A stretch of 64,000 bases of DNA from Escherichia phage W70: sequence record OP778610; one strand, written 5' to 3'. A model generated the notes under the pieces. The model was given only the letters and a program-made list of their open reading frames with translations. It made no database searches and had not been told where the DNA came from. Each line of letters opens with the position of its first letter. Within the stretch, counting starts at the first letter, position 1. Shown here piece after piece: positions 2,216 to 36,539 of this stretch. The position numbers and the translations under genes are program-made.

Positions 2216-3391
2216 TCAAAACGGAATATCGTCGTCAAAATCCATATCATCTACAGACATATTTACATGTCCTTCAATATCAGGGGTAGGTGAATCTTCT
2301 GCTGACGGAGTTAACTGCGGTTCCGGCTCAGGTTTCTTTTCCTCTTGCTTAGGAGTTGAAGCACCGTTACGGATCTTATCTTCCAATTGACAGATGAATC
2401 GGAAATTCTCTTCAGTCTTAGCAATAAAGGTTTCGATATTGTCACGACCCCAACGGGCAGAAAGAATGCCACACTGGCCTAAACGAGCACCGAAAGAGTA
2501 ATCATCCATAGATTTAAACTCTTCACGCAGTTTTGCTTTGATCGAATCCATCGCTGCAAGAACTTGTTCTACGATCACACCCTGATTTGCAATAGTTTCA
2601 TCAGGGAACATTGCATCGGTAATAGATAGTGCATTACCTAAACGAATAGGTAGATCATCTTTACCTTTACCTGAACGTGATCCTGTTCCAGTACTTGCAC
2701 CTTTTGGACCGTAAGCTTTAAAGCCTGTAACCGTACCATCATCTGAACGAACACCTGCAATACGACCACCTTCTGTAATCTGACCCGTCTGTTCATCAGT
2801 GAGGTTTACAGTAACTTCTGTGCCGTCTTCCAGCTTAACAACTACCTTATTGCCTTCGATAGATGTGATATCACCATAAATCTTCTTAGCTGCACCACCA
2901 GACGGCTTTTGCTGCTGTTGGGAACCACTTGATTGCTGCTGTTGCTGACGAGGCTCACGAGCACCGGATGCGTCAGTAATCTTGATACGTGCTTTCTTAC
3001 CTTCTGTAGAAGAACCTTGACTACCATCTTGTTTGGTATAGGTCTTGATAACAACAGGTAAACGAATTTTCATACCCTCTTTAAGATCGGTGTAACCACC
3101 TTCAGGATTTTTAATCTGGAACTGATTCTCATACTTCAGATTTTTAACTTCACCCTCACCAAAAGAAATCCATGCTTGATCTTCACCTTCTTTAAGAAGA
3201 ACCGCATAGCGGTGGGTATTGTTAATGCTTTTCTGCTGACCAGTATTCTTGTCTTTGAAGGTAGTCACTCGTGGGCTACCATCTTCATTAATACGTTTGA
3301 TCATGATACGTTCAATCGTACCTGCTGCAATGTTTACTGTGGTATCGGAAACAGCATCGTATACAGCATTGATAACTTTAACTTCAGACAT
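2216..3391 (-). CDS. single-stranded DNA-binding protein candidate with host-SSB-type C-terminal tip
   Basis: C-terminus DDMDFDDDIPF matches the bacterial SSB tail; Gln/Gly-rich linker (QQQQQSSGSQQQQ); sits in replication array. Confidence 0.55.
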   Translation of the reverse strand: MSEVKVINAVYDAVSDTTVNIAAGTIERIMIKRINEDGSPRVTTFKDKNTGQQKSINNTHRYAVLLKEGEDQAWISFGEGEVKNLKYENQFQIKNPEGGYTDLKEGMKIRLPVVIKTYTKQDGSQGSSTEGKKARIKITDASGAREPRQQQQQSSGSQQQQKPSGGAAKKIYGDITSIEGNKVVVKLEDGTEVTVNLTDEQTGQITEGGRIAGVRSDDGTVTGFKAYGPKGASTGTGSRSGKGKDDLPIRLGNALSITDAMFPDETIANQGVIVEQVLAAMDSIKAKLREEFKSMDDYSFGARLGQCGILSARWGRDNIETFIAKTEENFRFICQLEDKIRNGASTPKQEEKKPEPEPQLTPSAEDSPTPDIEGHVNMSVDDMDFDDDIPF

Positions 3392-3474
3392 TTAAATCTC
3401 CTTTAACTATTGAACACACCACTTAAGGCCGAGAAACTATATTACAACTAACTTATTTGAATTGCAAACAACTT

Positions 3475-3855
3475 TTAGAGATAAACTCGCTTAACTTTTT
3501 CATGAACATTATCAAACAAAGTGTTGATCATCTGCAAGTCTTTAATAAGTTCTTCCGTAAATTGTTCTTCTTTGTGAGCAAACACACGAGAACGGTCAAT
3601 GTTTACAGGATCTGAACTTTGGTCGCCTGACAGATCGAAAATGTCGATACCGATACGAGCACGGCCTTTTTCAATCTTGTTGTTTTCATCAATACCGAAG
3701 ACACTCATGATTTGCATTTCACGATCTTCTTCACTGTTTGTGTAAATGATCGTCGTATTCAAATTCTTAACACCATCGTAAATGTGAATGTTACGTGTCG
3801 CAGAGATAGGAATCCAATCAGCAACCAAATAATCTTTACCGTCGAAAATACTCAT
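3475..3855 (-). CDS. hypothetical protein
   Basis: 126-aa ORF in co-directional array; no motif recognised. Confidence 0.5.
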   Translation of the reverse strand: MSIFDGKDYLVADWIPISATRNIHIYDGVKNLNTTIIYTNSEEDREMQIMSVFGIDENNKIEKGRARIGIDIFDLSGDQSSDPVNIDRSRVFAHKEEQFTEELIKDLQMINTLFDNVHEKVKRVYL

Positions 3856-3909
3856 CTTCTTTCCTCTTTTGTTTAAGTGGGGCCATTATGCCCCACACTT
3901 AACTTTCTG

Positions 3910-4482
3910 TCAAGGACGTTTCGGTGGACTAACGACACCTTTTTTAGATAAAGGTAATTCGTCTGCATCTTTTCCACGGAGAGATTCTAACCACTCATCT
4001 AAAGATAGAGGTACTTTGCCAACACCCTTGGACCATACAGATAAGCAATACAGGTCGTATGCAGATGGGCCAGCATCACCCTTGTCACCATACGGCCCTT
4101 TTAAACTCGCCAACCAATCCTTTTCATTCAGTGGGATAGTGCCTGGATCTTCTTGTCGAAGAACTCTTAGGTATGTTTCATAAGCAGACTCTCCACGGGG
4201 ACCCATTGGACCAGGTAAACCTTGCGGTCCCTTTGCATAGTCTAAATATGCAGACTTTGAACCATCATTGACCACTGAAACTTTATACAATGACCAAGCC
4301 AACAGAACTATCCAACAAGCAAACAATGCAAGCGGGTAAGGGATCATTGAAGTAAAGAATGACAGGGCTAAAATTACAACCTTGTTCTTGTGATCACGAC
4401 GGAAAGCGATGATCACAGGGGCTAACCAGATAGCAAAGATAACCCACGCAGATAAGATAAACAACCAACTAATGTATTCCAT
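3910..4482 (-). CDS. membrane protein with collagen-like G-X-Y triplets
   Basis: Hydrophobic N-terminal half (at least two TM-like stretches); GPQGLPGPMGPRGES and GPYGDKGDAGPS triplets. Confidence 0.55.
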   Translation of the reverse strand: MEYISWLFILSAWVIFAIWLAPVIIAFRRDHKNKVVILALSFFTSMIPYPLALFACWIVLLAWSLYKVSVVNDGSKSAYLDYAKGPQGLPGPMGPRGESAYETYLRVLRQEDPGTIPLNEKDWLASLKGPYGDKGDAGPSAYDLYCLSVWSKGVGKVPLSLDEWLESLRGKDADELPLSKKGVVSPPKRP

Positions 4483-4670
4483 TAAGCCTCCTCAGTATCG
4501 TCTTTAAAGTAATCTAACATCCAACTCTCTACAGGTTTCGCATAGTAACCCGTTCGCCCTTTCTTTTGGAACTCCATAACAATTTCATTTGCAATACCTT
4601 TTGTGATTGCGATCCCGATCAGTGCACCACCAGGCCCCATTACTGCATGTGAACTAAGATCATTACTCAT
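4482..4670 (-). CDS. hypothetical protein
   Basis: 62-aa ORF, start overlaps upstream stop. Confidence 0.4.
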   Translation of the reverse strand: MSNDLSSHAVMGPGGALIGIAITKGIANEIVMEFQKKGRTGYYAKPVESWMLDYFKDDTEEA

Positions 4671-4962
4671 TTTTAACCCCCTTCATTTTATCTCTTAAAC
4701 TTTGAGCATCCCACGTATAACCTGAGGAGATACCTTTTTCACGTTCACTATCTTTGAACTTGCAAATTACAGATTTTGCTTCACCATCAACAACAACCGC
4801 ATAACTGTTGTAGTAATTGTGTTGCTTCTTGCAAAATTCGTGTAACTCCTTGACCTCTATTGGCATCAGAGAAGGTAGATTTTTGTATCGCTTTGTCTGA
4901 TCATCTTCACCCTCTCCGCAACCAACAAGAAGAAGTATACATAAAATGATTAACCTTTTCAA
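4663..4962 (-). CDS. putative lipoprotein
   Basis: N-terminus KRLIILCILLLVGC resembles a lipobox signal; TTG start in track. Confidence 0.5.
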   Translation of the reverse strand: MKRLIILCILLLVGCGEGEDDQTKRYKNLPSLMPIEVKELHEFCKKQHNYYNSYAVVVDGEAKSVICKFKDSEREKGISSGYTWDAQSLRDKMKGVKNE

Positions 4963-5112
4963 TAGCTACCCCCAAAATATTTTGTAGTCTCTACTGCAAA
5001 TATTGTCCCAAGTATGAACCATGTCGCACTTAGCACGTTGAAAGGTAAAAACCTCGATCCTGCAAGAGAAACCATAATAAAAAACGTTACAAAAATCTCT
5101 GGAGGAATCATC
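4963..5112 (-). CDS. small hydrophobic peptide (48 aa)
   Basis: ATG overlaps upstream stop (ATGA); two hydrophobic stretches; below ORF-track cutoff. Confidence 0.3.
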
Positions 5113-5512
5113 ATTGTTTGATAGTCCCTTTGGCGATCATCTCGTCAAGTTCATCTTCCGCACGACACATGATTTGGTAGATAGTTTCTGGATTGTTTAA
5201 GAATTCTGTGTACTTCTTGATACGACAAACTAAACGTGCACGAACTTTACGCTCACGGGCCACATGATTAAAGTAATGTCCCTTTTGTCTGTAGACCCAA
5301 GCATAATATACAGTTTTTGCTCTCTGGCGATCAGAACCTAAACGTTCAGCTAATTCTGTGTACGGGTCATTGTTGGTTGGACCAAACAAAAATATTTCTG
5401 CAAAACTTTCCTTCATGATACGAGCTTCTTCATCCGTAACTCGCGGACATTCTTCAGAACCGTAACGTGGGGTTTTAGTGGCATTTGGCTTCTTAGGGTA
5501 TACTTTACGCAT
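5111..5512 (-). CDS. hypothetical basic protein
   Basis: 133-aa ORF, Arg/Lys-rich. Confidence 0.5.
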   Translation of the reverse strand: MRKVYPKKPNATKTPRYGSEECPRVTDEEARIMKESFAEIFLFGPTNNDPYTELAERLGSDRQRAKTVYYAWVYRQKGHYFNHVARERKVRARLVCRIKKYTEFLNNPETIYQIMCRAEDELDEMIAKGTIKQ

Positions 5513-6409: not shown

Positions 6410-6695
6410 TTTTCGGATTAAGTTTCTTTTCTGCGGCCTTCAAAATAATATCCAGCTTTTCAATTTCCTTATGTAAAGGCTCAGATAATAACTTCTCACC
6501 AAAAAGCCAGAATTTCTTCATGCCTTTCTTAACGCACTTTCCCATAAAGCCCGCGAGGTCTTCTAGTCGCCAAGCAATAAAACTAAATATTGCAGCTAAA
6601 AGGTGAATCAAGGCCAGTAGTAAACGATGCGGGTTTAGTACAGCAAGGCACAGGATCATAAAGATTATTTTAGTAAAACCCCAAATAATTTTCAT
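6378..6695 (-). CDS. hypothetical membrane protein
   Basis: Hydrophobic N-terminus; start uncertain. Confidence 0.35.
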   Translation of the reverse strand: MKIIWGFTKIIFMILCLAVLNPHRLLLALIHLLAAIFSFIAWRLEDLAGFMGKCVKKGMKKFWLFGEKLLSEPLHKEIEKLDIILKAAEKKLNPKNVDKGEDDGV

Positions 6696-7078
6696 TCGTA
6701 ATTGATCTCCACTTTAACAATTTTACCAGTTTTATCATTGAATACTTCAATGTCATAGTATTCAACAACGCCTTCATCATCAAAAGAACTTTTTTGTTTG
6801 CAAGGTGATACCCAAAAACCGTGGATTACTGCCTCCTCCAGTCCGTCGGTATGTGATACAACACTCAATGTTGGGTAAGGGACCATAATAGGTTTTACCT
6901 CACCACAACCACACGTACAGCAAAATACTTCATCTTCTTCCAGTTGGTACAGTCGCTTTTCTGGAACAAAGGTCAGATGCGCCAAAGGATATTTAGAGAC
7001 GATGGCATTAATATAAGGTTTTCCTGCCAAGCTGTCAATAAATTCATTAAACTCTTTTCTATTTTTTGATAAGCTCAT
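6692..7078 (-). CDS. hypothetical Cys-cluster protein
   Basis: CCTCGCGE cysteine cluster. Confidence 0.45.
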   Translation of the reverse strand: MSLSKNRKEFNEFIDSLAGKPYINAIVSKYPLAHLTFVPEKRLYQLEEDEVFCCTCGCGEVKPIMVPYPTLSVVSHTDGLEEAVIHGFWVSPCKQKSSFDDEGVVEYYDIEVFNDKTGKIVKVEINYE

Positions 7079-7311
7079 CGAGTACCTCCAAAAATATTTA
7101 AAGCTTTAGAATAATCAATGTGACCTGGAACAGTGTGGGCCTCTTGTACAAGGCATTGCCGACAAATACGTGACACAACTGTTGTCTTGATCTCTTCTGT
7201 ATCGTAGAAGCGAGACATTACCTTTGTAACTTGATTGCATTGAGTAATAACAAAATCGTGTTTACAACTTGGTTTGTTTTCTTCAGTTTCTTTCTTTTTA
7301 AAAGGCCACAT
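7075..7311 (-). CDS. hypothetical Cys-rich protein
   Basis: CKHDF...CNQ...CRQC pattern. Confidence 0.4.
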   Translation of the reverse strand: MWPFKKKETEENKPSCKHDFVITQCNQVTKVMSRFYDTEEIKTTVVSRICRQCLVQEAHTVPGHIDYSKALNIFGGTR

Positions 7312-19971: not shown

Positions 19972-20808
19972 CAGGCTACTCGCTAGGTAGCCTCGGTGTG
20001 CTAAGACACCCGCCCATACTTTCATACAGGAACAGACTATATCATCACCTTTCGGTGCTCTCCACTTCGGAACCGCTTGGTCCCTACGCCTTTCGGCTAG
20101 TCGTTGAAGATTTTGCATATTCAGGATACATGGTCCAAGTATACAGATTGGCAATTTCTTTCCAATCCCTTTTGCTTCGGATGTTTAGAACAACCGCCCT
20201 TTTAACTTGAATGCCACTACTTTCGGCTATTCTCTTTGCAGTCCATCCCTCTGAAAGTAACTGGCATATCTTATGCACGTCGTTTTCAGAAAGTCCGGTA
20301 CTGTAATGATCTTGCCCTCTAATTGGTAATTTGTTTTCTATCGAGTGTCGAAGATTTTCCTCTTCTGTTACCCACTCAAGGTTATCTTTATGATTGTTCA
20401 ACTTATTACCGTCTTTATGATTTACCTCTGGTAAATTTAAAGGGTTTGGTATATAAGCCTTCGCGACCATCCTGTGAACATACTCAGGCTTCCGCTTACC
20501 ATTTAAGATAACATTAACAACAAAATACCCTGTACCCTTACTTAATGAATTTTTAAGGAATCTTCCTGAAAATTCACTAAAAACTTGTCCATCTTCAGTG
20601 ATAAAGTATGGACTGTTTTCTTCTATTCTTACCATAAGTCCCCTCTTTCATGGGACCAAGATCTAGAATATGCAACTTTCCTGCTGATTACCCAATCCTG
20701 TACCTTTTTAAACATTCACGCTTGCCTTTGCAGACTACGTTGTAGTGTTACAGGCTCTAAGGGCTTCCCAGCAATTCAAAGAGTTTTAGATGCGCTCTAC
20801 TGCTGTTA
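19972..20808 (-). mobile_element. group I intron in primase-helicase gene, HNH-ORF-containing
   Basis: Stop directly after exon 2; core GACTAGCCGAAAGGCGTAG and GATATAGTCTG; 3' boundary approximate. Confidence 0.6.
20084..20635 (-). CDS. HNH homing endonuclease (intron-encoded)
   Basis: LPEVNHKDGNKLNNHKDNLEWVT HNH-type motif. Confidence 0.7.
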   Translation of the reverse strand: MVRIEENSPYFITEDGQVFSEFSGRFLKNSLSKGTGYFVVNVILNGKRKPEYVHRMVAKAYIPNPLNLPEVNHKDGNKLNNHKDNLEWVTEEENLRHSIENKLPIRGQDHYSTGLSENDVHKICQLLSEGWTAKRIAESSGIQVKRAVVLNIRSKRDWKEIANLYTWTMYPEYAKSSTTSRKA

Positions 20809-21399
20809 ACGCATCATTGCACGGCTACCAGCAAACTGCGCTGACTGGACTTGACCACCAAATTCATGAGGCTTGCCAGATTCAGGCTTATTAAGGTGAC
20901 AGAAGCAATAATAAGTAAAGCCAAGCTCTTTTGCCAGTTTGGAGATCTCATCCGAGAATCGTTCCAGTTCCTGGTTAGCTTCAGAAGCACTCATACCTTG
21001 CACAAGACGAGTGATCGGGTCAATAAAGATATCTTCACAACCTTCTACGATCACTGCGTGACGGATAGCACCTTTCAGTTCATCCCATACTGCACGACCA
21101 TAGTTGTTATAATAGATAACACTATCACCAACTTCATCAGTAGCTTTGATCAGTTCTTCTTGCTTAAAGTATCCACGTTGACCTTCAAAAACTTCATTGC
21201 CCCAAATGTCACGGTAAGTTCCATCTTCTTGAGGAATCATTACCTTTTCGGCATTAACAAAGTCTTTATGATAACGCTTACCTGCGATCTTCTTACAAGT
21301 GATCTCGTTCTCTTCTTCAAACTTAAACACCGCAGCTTTTGACTTTTCAATACCCGTGATGTGTTCAACCATTTGGTTAAGAAGTTCAGACTTGCCCAT
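20809..21399 (-). CDS. primase-helicase, exon 2 (helicase core)
   Basis: Starts MGKS (Walker A remainder); IFIDPITRL Walker B-like; FCHLNK and QFAGSRAMM helicase motifs. Confidence 0.65.
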
Positions 21400-21688
21400 T
21401 TTCACCGTTATGTTCGACAGGGTTCGCTACTCCCTGCCCGTTCTCTTACGAACTGCTACATGTCCCCATGCAGACCAGACTATATCTTCAACCTGTTTCC
21501 AGGTGCTATGCACTTCGGACCGCTTGGCCCTACTCTACTCGATTCAAGAGTCTAGCTCTTGTCTTTCGATAGTCGTTGCTCCTTCCTTTTTCAAGGCTTG
21601 GATCAGGATTACGTGTTCTACGCTTCCCCTGAGTTCACATAGTATTTAGTCGAGGCATCTCTGCCAAGGCTGGCTAGACTTAATGTTT
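21400..21688 (-). mobile_element. group I intron in primase-helicase gene, ORF-less
   Basis: About 290 nt between exon 1 ...IGAG and exon 2 MGKS...; core GCTAGACTC and GAAGATATAGTCTGG; no ORF. Confidence 0.6.
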
Positions 21689-22624
21689 ACCAGCACCGAT
21701 GAAGTAACCTTCACCTGGACGACGACCCAAGGTAAGCTTGGTCATGGTGGGCCAAGGGAACTTCTTGCCGAGTTTAGGGATCTCATGTGCCTTTTCGCGG
21801 AACTGTGAATAAGTCGAGAAACCATCAGGCACATATTCTTTTGGCTTCATTGCAGCCCAAAACAACTGATCAGAAAGACCTTTGTTATACATATCGCAAG
21901 GGTCCATATCTTCTGGAATATCCACGACCTTCATTTGTGGAATTACAGAGTATACCGCTGCAACTGCATCTTTACCTTTCATGATCCCTTTGGCCTTCTC
22001 TGCTTCTGTCGCACGGTCAGCATCGAAAGCTACGATAATCTCTTCAAACTTACTCAGAAGCTTATAGTTATTCTTCTGTGATAAGTTTTGCACGGCATTG
22101 GATGTACCGTTAGAGATAGATACAACTGTGAAGTTTGGTTTACGAGTGGAACCATCCTTCGGTTTGTACTTCTCTGTCAATACCTGCCACAAGATTGCAG
22201 CATCGTATTCACCTTCAGTGATAAAGATCATACGTTTGGAAGACTTGTTTGCACCTTCCAGACCAAACATATCACAGGCTACAGATTGGAAACCGATAGT
22301 TGTAAAGTGCCCTTTCTGTTGCTTAGGGATCGTAAGATCACGCTTTTTAAAACCTACAACCTTACCTTCCAATGTGTACGGAAAATAATGTGCTTCTGGA
22401 GTCATACCGTCTTTAGCTGACAACTTGGTACGAATACCAAATCGTTTAGCTGTCTTTTCGTCGATACCACGCTCAGGGATACTTTTACACGGGTAAGTCA
22501 ATACATCTTCAACTGTTTCTTCCACACGAGACACACCGCCGCCATAATTACGTGCCACCGAAGCTTTAGGGTTTTTATGTCCAAACTTATAACCGCCAAA
22601 CAAACTTTCGCCAATAGTGCTCAT
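21689..22624 (-). CDS. primase-helicase, exon 1 (TOPRIM primase domain)
   Basis: TOPRIM motifs ITEGEYDA and FDADRA; ends GEGYFIGAG (start of Walker A). Confidence 0.7.
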
Positions 22625-32404: not shown

Positions 32405-32526
32405 CTTTAAACCTCTCGTCGTTTGTATGAGCTAACTATACGAGAACTTGAGAGGAAGATCAATACTTGATTTGCATTTTATTTTCATTATACTGTGCAC
32501 ATCTAAAACGAGAAGGAGTGTAATAA
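32405..32526. promoter_or_regulatory. divergent promoter region
   Basis: AT-rich 120-bp gap between divergent gene arrays; TTGATT...TATACT-like elements; GGAG RBS before 32527. Confidence 0.4.
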
Positions 32527-33090
32527 ATGAGTCAAGATAAAGAGTTAGCCATTGCAATATCGACAGCAGCTTCTGCACACGTTAACCAGGTAGATAAAGG
32601 AGGGAATATCTACATCCTTCATCCTTTACAGGTGATGCAGACACTGCAACAAAAAGGAAGAGAGGATTTAATGGCAGCAGGTGTTTTGCACGACGTGATT
32701 GAAGACACTAATCTCACTATGGTAGATCTCTTTAGAATGGGTATTTCAGAAAGAACTCTGGAGATTGTCGATGCAGTAACAAAGAAACGTAAGCAATCTT
32801 CATCTGATTACCTAGAGGGGATTTTAGAGAGTGAGGGTGCTTGTCATGTTAAGCTTGCGGATCTTAAACACAACTTAGATATTCTGCGAACTTGTAGCAC
32901 CACAGAAAAAGACTTGCAACGGGTCAGGAAGTATGTAACAATGCACTTGTTGATTACGGAGATGGTTGATTGGTATGAAAGTATCGGAAGGTATCTCGAT
33001 TATTGTGATTCTTTTGCCTATTCTAGCTATCTCGACGAACGTAAAGAATTTGTTCAGAAACTTATTAAAAAATGGAAGGAGTTTAAATGA
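32527..33090 (+). CDS. small alarmone hydrolase (SpoT/Mesh1-type HD-domain (p)ppGpp hydrolase)
   Basis: IYILHPLQV and AAGVLHDVIEDT motifs; 187 aa single-domain. Confidence 0.7.
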   Translation: MSQDKELAIAISTAASAHVNQVDKGGNIYILHPLQVMQTLQQKGREDLMAAGVLHDVIEDTNLTMVDLFRMGISERTLEIVDAVTKKRKQSSSDYLEGILESEGACHVKLADLKHNLDILRTCSTTEKDLQRVRKYVTMHLLITEMVDWYESIGRYLDYCDSFAYSSYLDERKEFVQKLIKKWKEFK

Positions 33091-33620
33091 AAAAGGTATT
33101 GAGTATTGAGCCGTTCACAACAACATACTTTGACGATTTGGAACGTCATGGTGATTATGGGGTACAAGACGCTGATGGTTGGAAAGAATTCCCTGAAGAA
33201 ACAAAAGGTGACATTACAAAGCTCGGTTGTAAGATCAATGGTGAAGAACCGAAAGGTGTTTACACCATGTTTTCTTTCCTTGAAGCTATGAATCCAACAT
33301 ACAAGGGGGATAGACAATTCGGTTTTTCTTTTGCATCATTCCTTACTTGCAGTTGTGGTCACGGGGGTTGTGCAGGCTATCATGATAATGTGGTTATTCG
33401 ACGTAAAAAGAACACGGTGATGGTCGTAGGGAAAAAGGAAGATGGTTACAACGAAGGTGTTGTATTGACAGGGGAGTCTGTTGTATACTTCGATAAAGAG
33501 CAATGGGACAGCGTTCTGGACCACTACCTTAAACTCTTTAAAGAAAATCCAGATGGTGTTTTTGAAGATACAGGTTTTATGTTCACTGGTCGTTGGGGGA
33601 CTAAAAATTTTTCAAAATAA
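33087..33620 (+). CDS. hypothetical Cys-rich protein
   Basis: Start overlaps hydrolase stop; CSCGHGGCAGYHD cluster. Confidence 0.5.
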   Translation: MKKVLSIEPFTTTYFDDLERHGDYGVQDADGWKEFPEETKGDITKLGCKINGEEPKGVYTMFSFLEAMNPTYKGDRQFGFSFASFLTCSCGHGGCAGYHDNVVIRRKKNTVMVVGKKEDGYNEGVVLTGESVVYFDKEQWDSVLDHYLKLFKENPDGVFEDTGFMFTGRWGTKNFSK

Positions 33621-33690
33621 CTTAAAAACTGGTTGACTTAAGAAATAGAAAAGATATACTTATCACATCAAAAACAAGAGGAGATATAAA

Positions 33691-34920
33691 ATGCAAGCAA
33701 CTTATCAACGTATGGACCAAACCATGTTCAAAAAACGTATCAGTATCCGTGATATGGAACCACTGATCCGTCTGGGCGCTTCCATCGGTAAGACCGTGTT
33801 CTTTTTTGGTGGTGCAGGTCTTGGTAAGTCTGAAAAAGTAAAACAGATCGCGGACTCTATGTTCCCACATCGTGTAGGCAATAACCTGTGTGATGTTCGT
33901 CTGTCTGATAAAGAGCCACAAGATATTGCAGGCATTCCGATTCCGATCTCTTATCCAGATCCAAAGACTGGTGAAGAAGTTACCCGTACTGTATATGCTG
34001 TTCCAAACTTCTGGCCTACCGATCCTGATTGGGAAGGTATCGTGTTCCTGGATGAACTGCCGAACGCACCATTGGGTACTCAGCACTCTGCATATCAGGT
34101 TATTCTTGATCACGTTGCAGGTGAGCATAAGTTCCCGAAAGGTACTGTGTTTGTAGGTGCGGGTAACCGTGATACTGATGGAGCAGGGACAACATCTATG
34201 CCTGGTCCACTGGTTAACCGTATGATCATCGCCGAGGTTGATTATAATCTGGATGTGTGGATCGAAGATTATGCGATTCCGTTCCGTCTGCATCCGAACA
34301 TTATTGGTTTCTTGAAGCAGTTTCCAGAGCATTTCTATACTGGTGACGTAGAAAACCGAAGCACTCCGGTTTATTCATCTCCTCGTCAATGGAAAACAGC
34401 ATCTGACATTCTGTATAAGTACGATGCTGGCGAGATTAATGAATTTATCGCAGAGGTTGCCCTGGCAGGTACAGTTGGTGAAGGCTTGGAAGTACAGATC
34501 CTTGCTTACCATTTACGTGCTAAAGAACTTCCTCCGATTGAAGATATCTTTAGTGGTGCAGTTAAAGAACATAAACTTGATCGCAGTAAGAACGACCTTG
34601 TTTACGTACTGGCACAAACTGGTCTGCGTCGTATGGAAGATGAAGTTATGGATAACGATATGACTGATGATAAGTTCCTTGAACGTGCAGGTAACTTCCT
34701 TACGTTCATGTACAATAACTATTATGCAAACAACAAGGATACGATGATTGCTTTGATCTTGGGCGTGTTCCGTGGTCCAAACGATAAGCCATCTATCCTG
34801 ACTGTTAACCCGAAACGTCAGAAAATGATTCCGCTCATGCGTAAAAGTTGCCCGACTGTTTCTGCCGCAGTTATGGAATACATGACTCGCTATGGTCAAC
34901 TGATTAAAGAATTCGAATAA
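33691..34920 (+). CDS. MoxR-like AAA+ ATPase
   Basis: Walker A GGAGLGKS, Walker B VFLDELPNA, GAGNRDTDG. Confidence 0.65.
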   Translation: MQATYQRMDQTMFKKRISIRDMEPLIRLGASIGKTVFFFGGAGLGKSEKVKQIADSMFPHRVGNNLCDVRLSDKEPQDIAGIPIPISYPDPKTGEEVTRTVYAVPNFWPTDPDWEGIVFLDELPNAPLGTQHSAYQVILDHVAGEHKFPKGTVFVGAGNRDTDGAGTTSMPGPLVNRMIIAEVDYNLDVWIEDYAIPFRLHPNIIGFLKQFPEHFYTGDVENRSTPVYSSPRQWKTASDILYKYDAGEINEFIAEVALAGTVGEGLEVQILAYHLRAKELPPIEDIFSGAVKEHKLDRSKNDLVYVLAQTGLRRMEDEVMDNDMTDDKFLERAGNFLTFMYNNYYANNKDTMIALILGVFRGPNDKPSILTVNPKRQKMIPLMRKSCPTVSAAVMEYMTRYGQLIKEFE

Positions 34921-35000: not shown

Positions 35001-36539
35001 ATGGCAAAACTTACGATTGAAGAAAGCAATATGATTGAAATGCAAGTCTCTGAAGCAGAGCGTATCATCGAGGCTGCTAGTCTACAACTGATGCGGTTTA
35101 AGCCCTTCTACGGGGTAATGCTTTCTTCTATGCCTGTTAAAAAGGCGACGGAGTGGTGTAGTACAATGGCGACTGATGGACGTAACCTGTATTACCATCC
35201 AGAGTTCGTTGCAGGTATGACAGAAGAACGTAAAAAATTGGTACTTGATCGACTTTCCAAAACTGAGAAAGATCCTAAAAAGCTGAAAGAGTCCACTGAG
35301 TTTATTAATGTCTTCTATCGTCGCAAGACTGCCCGTGAGCTTGCTCTTATTCTTGAGCACGAATGTGATCATGTGATCTCTGATCATGCCTCTCGTGGTA
35401 AAGGATTTAATCATGAACTTTACAACATTGCGGCTGACCATCGTATCAATACAACGGCTGTGCTTATTCACCAAAAAGGGGATGAGTTAGGTAAAGCATG
35501 GTTCCCTGCCGGAGAGAGAACAGTATTTGATAAGAATGCTGAGTTTGGATTTATGGCCTGGTCTTACTGTGATTTCCGATTCAAAGATATGTATACTGAG
35601 CAGATCTATGAAATCCTGAATAAAGAGCAAGATGATAAAGAAAAATCCAAAGGACAAGGTTCTGGTTCTGGAAGTGGAGAGGGTGATGGTGAAGAGGGTG
35701 ATCAAGGTCGTAAAGGTGTTGATCAGCACATGGACCAGAACGGCGATCCAGAAGATTCAGAAGGCGATAGTGTCGAAGATGCGTTAGGAATCGACCGTAA
35801 AGCGAAGCCTAAGCAAACAGCAGAGGAACGCCAGTATAACGATGGGGTTATGCGTCGAGCCATTGAGAATGCCGTACAGGCAGCAGGAAGCGGTGCGCCG
35901 GAAGATGCTCGTCGTTTTGTAGAAGCAGCAGGTAAACCAAAGATTAACTATCTTCGTTTGTTGCGTAAAACTATTGAACGTCTGTTTAAAGATGATGTAT
36001 CATATCGTCGTTTGTCACGCCGTAGTCACTCGTTAACTCGAACTCTTCGTAGTTCTGGTTACTTGTCTGGACGACAGACGATTGGTTTACCATCGAAGAA
36101 CAAACAGAAGACTATTCGTGCGGGTGTCTTCTTCGACGTATCGGGATCATTTAACGATGATCTATTGCGTCCAACAATGCGTGAGATTCGTGGATTATGT
36201 AATCTTTACGACGAATTTGAGGTCACGATGGCTTGCTGGTCAACAAAGGTTGGTAACATCGAGACGTATACGAAAAGAAACGTTGGTGAGATTGCTGACT
36301 ATAAGATCAAAACGACATTTGGTACGGATGTTTCTTGTGTGTTTGAAGCATTAGATGAAATGGAAGACCCTATGGATCAGATCATCATCTATACTGACGG
36401 TTACTTTGCTGATGTATCCCAAAAGAAAGATTGGGCCAAAAAGTATGGTAAGAATGTTCTTTGGATCATCCTGGGCCGTGGGTCTTCGTTCACCCCACCT
36501 TTCGGCAAGGCAATTGATTTTGACAAGTATCTTAAATAA
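35001..36539 (+). CDS. putative metallopeptidase-vWA domain protein
   Basis: HExxH in ILEHECDHV; acidic Gly/Ser linker; C-terminal FFDVSGSFNDD MIDAS-like motif. Confidence 0.6.
   Translation: MAKLTIEESNMIEMQVSEAERIIEAASLQLMRFKPFYGVMLSSMPVKKATEWCSTMATDGRNLYYHPEFVAGMTEERKKLVLDRLSKTEKDPKKLKESTEFINVFYRRKTARELALILEHECDHVISDHASRGKGFNHELYNIAADHRINTTAVLIHQKGDELGKAWFPAGERTVFDKNAEFGFMAWSYCDFRFKDMYTEQIYEILNKEQDDKEKSKGQGSGSGSGEGDGEEGDQGRKGVDQHMDQNGDPEDSEGDSVEDALGIDRKAKPKQTAEERQYNDGVMRRAIENAVQAAGSGAPEDARRFVEAAGKPKINYLRLLRKTIERLFKDDVSYRRLSRRSHSLTRTLRSSGYLSGRQTIGLPSKNKQKTIRAGVFFDVSGSFNDDLLRPTMREIRGLCNLYDEFEVTMACWSTKVGNIETYTKRNVGEIADYKIKTTFGTDVSCVFEALDEMEDPMDQIIIYTDGYFADVSQKKDWAKKYGKNVLWIILGRGSSFTPPFGKAIDFDKYLK

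Follow-up and report, generated by a model that had tools for sequence, protein, structure and literature searches.

The genome of Escherichia phage W70 (sequence record OP778610) carries, in the 64,000-nucleotide stretch analyzed here (hereafter the window), two overlapping genes on the plus strand, open reading frame (ORF) 1 and ORF2. ORF1 is predicted to be a single-domain RelA/SpoT-type HD hydrolase of the Aph/PbcSpo type. The reading we favor, and consider probable, is that it is an active Aph1-type 3′-pyrophosphohydrolase countering toxins, with ORF2 being a separate protein that the hydrolase does not need. Gene orientation flips across a 122-nt divergent gap (nt. 32405–32526), and ORF1 opens the rightward block, which continues beyond ORF2 with a MoxR-like ATPase (nt. 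33691..34920) and a DUF2201 metallopeptidase/VWA protein (nt. 35001..36539). The neighbors of ORF1 comprise a 162-a.a ORF without assigned function, ORF2, and the MoxR-like ATPase. The features of the locus are as follows:

32463..32435, minus strand: mirror promoter candidate, from a consensus scan only.
32467..32494, plus strand: sigma-70-like promoter candidate (TTGATT-16-TATACT) upstream of the hydrolase gene, from a consensus scan only.
32513..32518, plus strand: Shine-Dalgarno sequence AAGGAG, 8 nt 5′ of the ORF1 ATG, read from the sequence.
32527..33090, plus strand: ORF1 (187 a.a), predicted small alarmone hydrolase with a single HD domain, based on Pfam, PHROG, and PDB matches and on selection estimates.
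32689..32709, plus strand: HDVIEDT (residues 55–61 of ORF1), comprising the HD dyad and ED pair, in invariant alignment columns.
33074..33081, plus strand: Shine-Dalgarno sequence of ORF2, GGAAGGAG, inside the 3′ end of ORF1 and 5 nt ahead of the ORF2 ATG, kept in the UPEC06, A73, A7_1, and LTH01 phages.
33087..33620, plus strand: ORF2 (177 a.a, isoelectric point 5.3), a member of PHROG 8242 with a predicted alpha/beta fold.
33348..33386, plus strand: ORF2 motif CSCGHGGCAGYHD (residues 88–100), from a 23-member family alignment.
33633..33660, plus strand: sigma-70-like promoter candidate (TTGACT-16-TATACT, 10/12 matches) in the gap between ORF2 and the ATPase gene, from a consensus scan only.

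The ATGA at nt. 33087–33090 is common to the stop codon of ORF1 (TGA) and the start codon of ORF2 (ATG), confirming an earlier sequence-only reading of this DNA, which had placed both ORFs here with the start of the second overlapping the stop of the first. No terminator-like site was seen after ORF2 in the consensus scan, nor any RNA elements or repeats in the two intergenic regions, nor any tRNA in the window. In the Salmonella phage PVP-SE1, a promoter is annotated in the equivalent divergent region, but on the opposite (−) strand.

The region is 93.5–95.6% identical to five E. coli phages of ~141–145 kb (A73, A7_1, A5-4, LTH01, and UPEC06), four of which (A73, A7_1, LTH01, and UPEC06) are classified in the Vequintavirinae; the window is ~95% identical to A73 phage. 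Compared with those four relatives, the ratio of nonsynonymous to synonymous substitution rates (dN/dS, Nei–Gojobori) was 0.09–0.11 for ORF1, 0.08–0.09 for ORF2, and ~0.02 for the ATPase gene. The Shine-Dalgarno sequence and ATGA junction are the same in all four, with the sole exception of one upstream base in LTH01 phage. Given the low dN/dS and the shared junction, ORF1 and ORF2 are real genes under purifying selection and not chance ORFs. Both also match phage protein families, ORF1 with PHROG 990 (2e-53) and ORF2 with PHROG 8242 (1.9e-56). Separately, within nt. 32527–34920, we noted that the synonymous divergence (dS) of ORF1 is ~0.27 from all four relatives, which are nearly identical among themselves, while the window ATPase gene is near A73 phage alone (dS 0.065 vs. 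0.26 for the other relatives). This points to a mosaic operon with putative recombination breakpoints inside it.

The sequence-only reading had described ORF1 as a phage-encoded small alarmone hydrolase with no synthetase domain, and this description held. The Pfam HD_4 profile (PF13328), a search which that reading had suggested, matched ORF1 at 32 bits (gathering cut-off, 27.2), and HD_4 and HD were the only Pfam domains at E ≤ 0.1, with no synthetase (RelA_SpoT) or regulatory domain among them. ORF1 also matches TIGR00691 (spoT_relA), with models for long RelA/SpoT homologues covered only at positions 1–85 and 21–110, and its PHROG family is annotated as a "metal-dependent phosphohydrolase". 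Among PDB sequences, the best phmmer match was the (p)ppApp-specific hydrolase Aph1 (7SMG; 3e-19, residues 9–143, 33% identity), followed by the hydrolase domains of RelSeq (2e-11), B. subtilis Rel, and MESH1 (3e-8 to 3e-7), and other small alarmone hydrolases; these further matches include 1VJ7, 7OIW, and 3NR1, down to 3e-8.

Both motifs quoted in the earlier reading, HP...V and HDVIEDT, are found in ORF1, the first within LHPLQV (residues 31–36) and the second at residues 55–61. When ORF1 was aligned with Aph1, RelSeq, and four phage orthologues, H32, H55/D56, E59/D60, D112, and N116 were invariant (H53, H77/D78, E81/D82, D144, and N148 in RelSeq numbering). A loss of the HD dyad upon careful alignment had been named as the finding that would speak against a hydrolase; the dyad is invariant, and since the metal and catalytic residues are as well, the hydrolase call stands, with HD_4 above threshold and strong homology to solved hydrolases. 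A single-sequence AlphaFold2 model of ORF1 reached a predicted local distance difference test (pLDDT) score of 45, too low for fold comparison. The UPEC06 phage record (MW250786.1, nt. 6626–7189) names the orthologue of ORF1 "GTP pyrophosphokinase", which denotes the synthetase half that is absent from the protein, and the orthologue is labeled "hypothetical protein" in the four other close relatives.

From its sequence, ORF1 adds another member to a kind of hydrolase that is already known and has been sampled by experiment. The hydrolases of the Salmonella phages PVP-SE1 (PbcSpo) and SSU5 (PaSpo) neutralized all five of the toxic synthetases tried, namely CapRel, PhRel2, FaRel2, PhRel, and FaRel, upon co-expression in E. 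coli (PMC7229694). Four of these five toxins pyrophosphorylate the 3′-terminal adenosine of tRNA and the fifth makes (pp)pApp; the tRNA 3′-pyrophosphate can be removed by small alarmone hydrolases. PVP-SE1 phage belongs, like the window, to the Vequintavirinae, and its hydrolase, gp220, and ORF1 have 48% identity across 154 residues (tblastn E 1e-36) and agree in their catalytic and Aph-type specificity residues. The gp220 gene also shares the slot of ORF1, with the divergent promoter region on its left and the MoxR ATPase on its right. However, gp220 is shorter (169 a.a), without the last ~30 residues of ORF1, and its gene is preceded by a 342-a.a ORF with no ORF2 homologue near. The placement of ORF1 in PbcSpo is by proxy only, via its identity to PVP-SE1 gp220, which was placed in that subfamily by Jimmy et al. 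2020.

Aph1, from Bacteroides caccae, has its HD fold residues in common with ORF1, as well as all but one of the six Aph signature residues. It is a tetrameric protein of 149 a.a without an extra C-terminal helix, which allows the tetramer, whereas ORF1 (187 a.a) carries an extension. In temperate phages, Aph1 also protects against the MuF-Apk2 toxin to which it is linked, whereas ORF1 stands as an orphan in the genome of a lytic myovirus. The single-domain hydrolases SSU5 PaSpo, MESH1, and ATfaRel belong to the same superfamily and have a proposed counter-toxin chemistry like that of ORF1, although SSU5 PaSpo and MESH1 are more distant from it and the PaSpo type has R, not D, at the base-contacting position. 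Finally, modules that pair a hydrolase with a small alarmone synthetase that is toxic (toxSAS), such as FaRel-ATfaRel and Apk2-IapK-Aph1, have an adjacent synthetase-like toxin gene, and the ORF1 locus is without one.

The residues lining the active site bear on the substrate. The Aph signature consists of D24, R96, D116, R119, K133, and Y134, all but R96 near the active site; a D24R/R119A double mutant of Aph1 acquires ppGpp hydrolysis, and among 12 Aph1 homologues assayed, all cleaved ppApp and two had modest ppGpp activity (PMC10083569). By alignment, D23, D118, R121, K135, and Y136 of ORF1 correspond to Aph1 D24, D116, R119, K133, and Y134, and these five active-site residues are present in all four of the aligned Vequintavirinae orthologues. 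The RelSeq residues aligned with D23, D118, and R121 are R, R, and K, the first of them being the guanine-contacting arginine of Rel (RelSeq R44, TtRel R43). Given that the five active-site Aph residues are present, the ppGpp-excluding D and R among them, ORF1 likely prefers adenosine 3′-pyrophosphates, i.e., (p)ppApp and pyrophosphorylated tRNA, over ppGpp. Hydrolases of pneumococcal prophages are 46% identical to ORF1 over residues 9–136. In these prophages, a gene for a minor head protein and then a small ORF precede the hydrolase gene, which has the aph1 position in the apk2-iapK-aph1 order reported for S. pneumoniae prophages.

In the reading we favor, ORF1, which opens a rightward operon, would be a stand-alone 3′-pyrophosphohydrolase, and its activity would depend on Mn2+, by analogy with PVP-SE1 gp220. 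It would strip the 3′-pyrophosphate from (p)ppApp produced by toxic alarmone synthetases and repair tRNA after toxins of the CapRel/FaRel2/PhRel type have pyrophosphorylated its 3′-terminal A, which would keep ATP pools and translation going once a host or prophage toxSAS defense fires. An adenosine specificity is compatible with broad toxSAS neutralization, because the toxins modify the tRNA 3′ adenosine or make (pp)pApp. ORF2 would be a separate accessory phage protein, probably with a three-cysteine metal site, and its translational coupling to the hydrolase a happenstance of this clade. The genes, homology, residues, and distribution were observed here and the neutralization of five toxSAS was demonstrated by others for PVP-SE1; from these we infer the substrate preference and the role in infection.

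Several points weigh against this account. The sixth Aph residue is not kept, with ORF1 having G98 at the site of Aph1 R96 (a G in three of the four aligned Vequintavirinae orthologues and an R in SSBI34 phage), and beyond the point where the Aph1 alignment stops, ORF1 runs on for ~45 a.a in a C-terminal extension that is absent from Aph1. ATfaRel, of the PbcSpo subfamily, has been reported to degrade (p)ppGpp and ppApp alike, and given this dual activity the adenosine selectivity of ORF1 is a prediction from residues only. In the literature searched, we found no report of such a phage hydrolase countering toxSAS in an actual infection. The ATGA coupling, together with a second lineage in which a hydrolase lies 1.6 kb upstream of an ORF2 homologue, also leaves room for a functional link between the two proteins.

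Alternatively, ORF1 may be mainly a (p)ppGpp hydrolase that suppresses the host stringent response and keeps rRNA and protein synthesis high, a role often put forward in phage genome papers. Such a function agrees with the homology of ORF1 to MESH1 and to the Rel and SpoT hydrolase domains, with the match to TIGR00691, and with the dual activity of ATfaRel. However, D23 stands in place of the guanine-contacting arginine of Rel and R121 at the site of Aph1 R119, and Aph1 gains ppGpp activity only upon D24R plus R119A. In addition, ppGpp hydrolysis was not seen for 10 of the 12 Aph homologues assayed, and the nearest solved relative, Aph1, is no ppGpp hydrolase. We therefore consider a mainly ppGpp-directed role unlikely, though with a real chance of being correct. 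The sequence-only reading had proposed that such enzymes blunt either the host stringent response or alarmone-based toxins; the toxin half of this proposal fits best, while the stringent-response half sits poorly with the Aph1 D and R being present.

ORF2 belongs to a phage protein family with no assigned role. It matched the PHROG 8242 profile (E 1.9e-56) over residues 1–176, corresponding to profile positions 1–178 of 181. This family, which includes gp110 of the Cronobacter phage CR3 and EpJSE_00055 of the Escherichia phage JSE, shares the invariant CxCGxxGC motif with ORF2; it is without a Pfam model or a named relative, and the structure libraries searched gave no match to it. ORF2 itself had no match in Pfam, NCBIfam, or PADLOC. 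Using phmmer against 1.84 billion representative proteins, we obtained 21 ORF2 clusters, of which two long repetitive matches (P0006 and P0016) were rejected as artefacts. A profile search of 5.8 billion proteins gave 31 matches. None of the matches from either search had a name or Pfam domain, and no relatives were found in GTDB (one genome per species, 185,579 bacterial/archaeal species) in a search limited by its peptide pattern. Longer relatives of ORF2 (314 a.a and 227 a.a) have an extra region without a Pfam domain.

The cysteine cluster that had been pointed out in ORF2 is present as part of CSCGHGGCAGYHD, though conserved only in part. In the 23-sequence family alignment, the invariant residues are M1, C88, C90, G91, and C95, with G94, G97, G120, and Y121 nearly invariant, and both histidines of the cluster (H92 and H99) vary. 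The CxCGxxGC site has three conserved ligands and no conserved fourth. Known zinc-finger and Fe-S families (e.g., SWIM, CxCx(n)CxH) were considered and rejected, there being no curated match and only three invariant cysteines. We infer metal binding by this site, and our simplest guess is zinc, with the remaining position filled by water, a variable ligand, or an intermolecular one. Based on the family alignment, AlphaFold2 gave an alpha/beta fold for ORF2 (pLDDT 88.4, predicted template modeling score 0.85). Foldseek comparison of this model with the PDB had a best E of 1.3, the family profile had no matches to PDB sequences, and Foldseek against BFVD returned unnamed phage proteins only. The fold of ORF2 is thus confidently predicted, yet is unmatched in the libraries searched.

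The sequence-only reading had also suggested that ORF2 is a co-transcribed, translationally coupled partner of the hydrolase. Carrying this further than that reading did, the two proteins would act as one unit in which ORF2 serves as a metal-binding regulatory or targeting subunit, made at a fixed ratio via the coupling and, for example, docking onto the C-terminal extension of the hydrolase. The gene arrangement offers this idea some footing, with the ATGA and internal Shine-Dalgarno sequence conserved in five genomes and the order hydrolase-ORF2-ATPase found in Certrevirus (CR3 and POP15 phages), SSBI34 phage, and a 150-kb metagenomic contig (L011). However, the pair is interrupted by one or two small ORFs in CR3, SSBI34, POP15, and L011. 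As these relatives from outside the close clade have the genes separated, the translational coupling is specific to a small, close clade; co-transcription and coupling are compatible with the sequence there but are not general. Long-tailed hydrolases do occur in phages with ORF2 and the shorter PVP-SE1 type in phages without it, but this correlation is confounded by shared ancestry, and the PVP-SE1 hydrolase is active alone in E. coli with no ORF2 homologue nearby. The PVP-SE1 protein gp222 was tried as a hidden ORF2 homologue and rejected (hhalign probability 0.1%).

The wider distribution of the two families also separates them. Among phage records, the hydrolase type was found in 328 and the ORF2 family in 89, with 28 of the 89 ORF2 matches being full-length; among the matches listed, the full-length ones are all in Vequintavirinae-type phages. 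Within Escherichia records, ORF2 homologues occur in 52 (mostly Krischvirus), as opposed to 15 with the hydrolase type and 4 with the PaSpo type. The ORF2 family occurs without a nearby hydrolase in ~18 phage lineages, and most hydrolase-bearing phages are without ORF2. A further 16 contexts (phage, IMG/VR, and metagenome) have no hydrolase in the flank, mostly ~5 kb, and ORF2 homologues stand beside nrdD/nrdG or amid unrelated small ORFs. In the Pectobacterium phage DU_PP_I (MF979560.1, nt. 1181–2144), the hydrolase is cut to residues 63–185 with the HD core gone and ORF2 intact, and a 203-a.a ORF without a Pfam match lies at the place of the hydrolase N-terminal half. DU_PP_I is a case of natural hydrolase loss with ORF2 retention.

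One further contig speaks for a partnership from outside the Vequintavirinae. On an unrelated contig from IMG/VR and JGI (L031, the same as L036; 87,438 bp), at nt. 2697–5366, a hydrolase of 193 a.a (HD_4, 60 bits) lies 1.6 kb upstream of a distant ORF2 homologue of 163 a.a on the same strand. This is only the second lineage found with a hydrolase close to an ORF2-family gene. Its hydrolase is of the PaSpo type, being 44.5% identical to the SSU5 enzyme, with TtRel and MESH1 as the best PDB matches and R at the base-contacting position. PhoH is encoded 1.2 kb downstream and is the sole gene in common with Aeromonas and Alteromonas phages. Set against this, one extra chance co-location among ~19 lineages has a probability of ~0.1 by a rough estimate, and we treat the contig as a lead and not as evidence of function.

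Given PVP-SE1 phage, the ~18 hydrolase-free lineages, DU_PP_I phage, and the separated gene pairs, we concluded that ORF2 is an independent accessory gene and not a dedicated partner. As a functional claim, the word "partner" does not survive, the ORF2 family being mostly without the hydrolase and the hydrolase mostly without ORF2, and we regard a two-protein unit as rather improbable.

Outside the Vequintavirinae, the anaerobic ribonucleotide reductase genes nrdD/nrdG are the sole recurring neighbors of the ORF2 family, being found in Krischvirus, Plateaulakevirus, and two IMG/VR contigs. In Krischvirus (e.g., JSE phage), nrdD and nrdG flank the ORF2 homologue, and in Plateaulakevirus (Aeromonas phage 4L372XY) it lies 3 kb downstream of nrdD/nrdG. 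The hydrolase, ATPase, and DUF2201 genes recur near ORF2 homologues only as inherited synteny inside the Vequintavirinae. We also considered, with only a slim chance of its being right, that ORF2 has a phage-only fold with a three-Cys metal site and works with hydrolases of more than one subfamily (Aph/PbcSpo in the window, PaSpo in L031). In that case ORF2 might be a sensor, an adaptor to pyrophosphorylated tRNA, or an inhibitor of toxSAS or nucleotide defense, and the adjacency to nrdD/nrdG in T4-like phages would mean a wider role in nucleotide and redox metabolism. As a separate observation on the family, the metagenome contig ERZ808232 NODE-534 has two ORF2-family paralogues (nt. 2389–2916 and 4554–5204) on the same strand, 1.6 kb apart.

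Lastly, ORF1 could provide self-immunity against a (p)ppApp synthetase toxin of the phage itself, exactly the role of its nearest characterized relatives (Aph1 of B. caccae, against MuF-Apk2, and of pneumococcal prophages), but we set this aside as very improbable, given that the Apk2 toxin domain, run by tblastn against the phage collection, matched 128 records, none from Escherichia or Vequintavirinae phages (within the sensitivity of tblastn), that Pfam found no synthetase domain in the three neighboring genes scanned, and that the ORF1 gene lies in an early-type divergent operon away from the head genes. Because the Apk2 query missed the Escherichia and Vequintavirinae phages, ORF1 is best described as an orphan hydrolase.

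The MoxR-like ATPase after ORF2 corresponds to phrog_1297 and is annotated as MoxR in the UPEC06 and PVP-SE1 phages. The 512-a.a protein that follows has DUF2201_N metallopeptidase and DUF2201 VWA-like domains, and the PHROGs tag of "HNH endonuclease" on it is unsupported by these Pfam domains. The ATPase and DUF2201 pair is kept across the Vequintavirinae. Elsewhere in the window, we noted a complete group I intron at nt. 21456–21721 on the minus strand (Rfam RF00028, 70.4 bits, E 8e-16), flanked by ORFs at nt. 21680..22624, 20806..21405, and 20084..20635. Downstream of the intron come an ORF with a DnaB_C helicase domain and then an HNH_3 endonuclease ORF, an arrangement that resembles a replicative helicase gene split by an intron, next to a homing endonuclease.

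Stand-alone phage alarmone hydrolases were described in 2020, and a 48%-identical enzyme, from a phage of the same subfamily, has already been shown to neutralize toxic alarmone synthetases (PMC7229694); the hydrolase itself therefore adds little to what is known. ORF2 is a conserved, selected, phage-restricted orphan and a reasonable target for structural and functional work, though untied to alarmones here. For ORF1, countering toxSAS or (p)ppApp toxins is more likely than degrading ppGpp, because its active site is Aph-like. The predicted adenosine preference of this Vequintavirinae group would thereby shift its expected role from suppression of the stringent response to toxSAS counter-defense.

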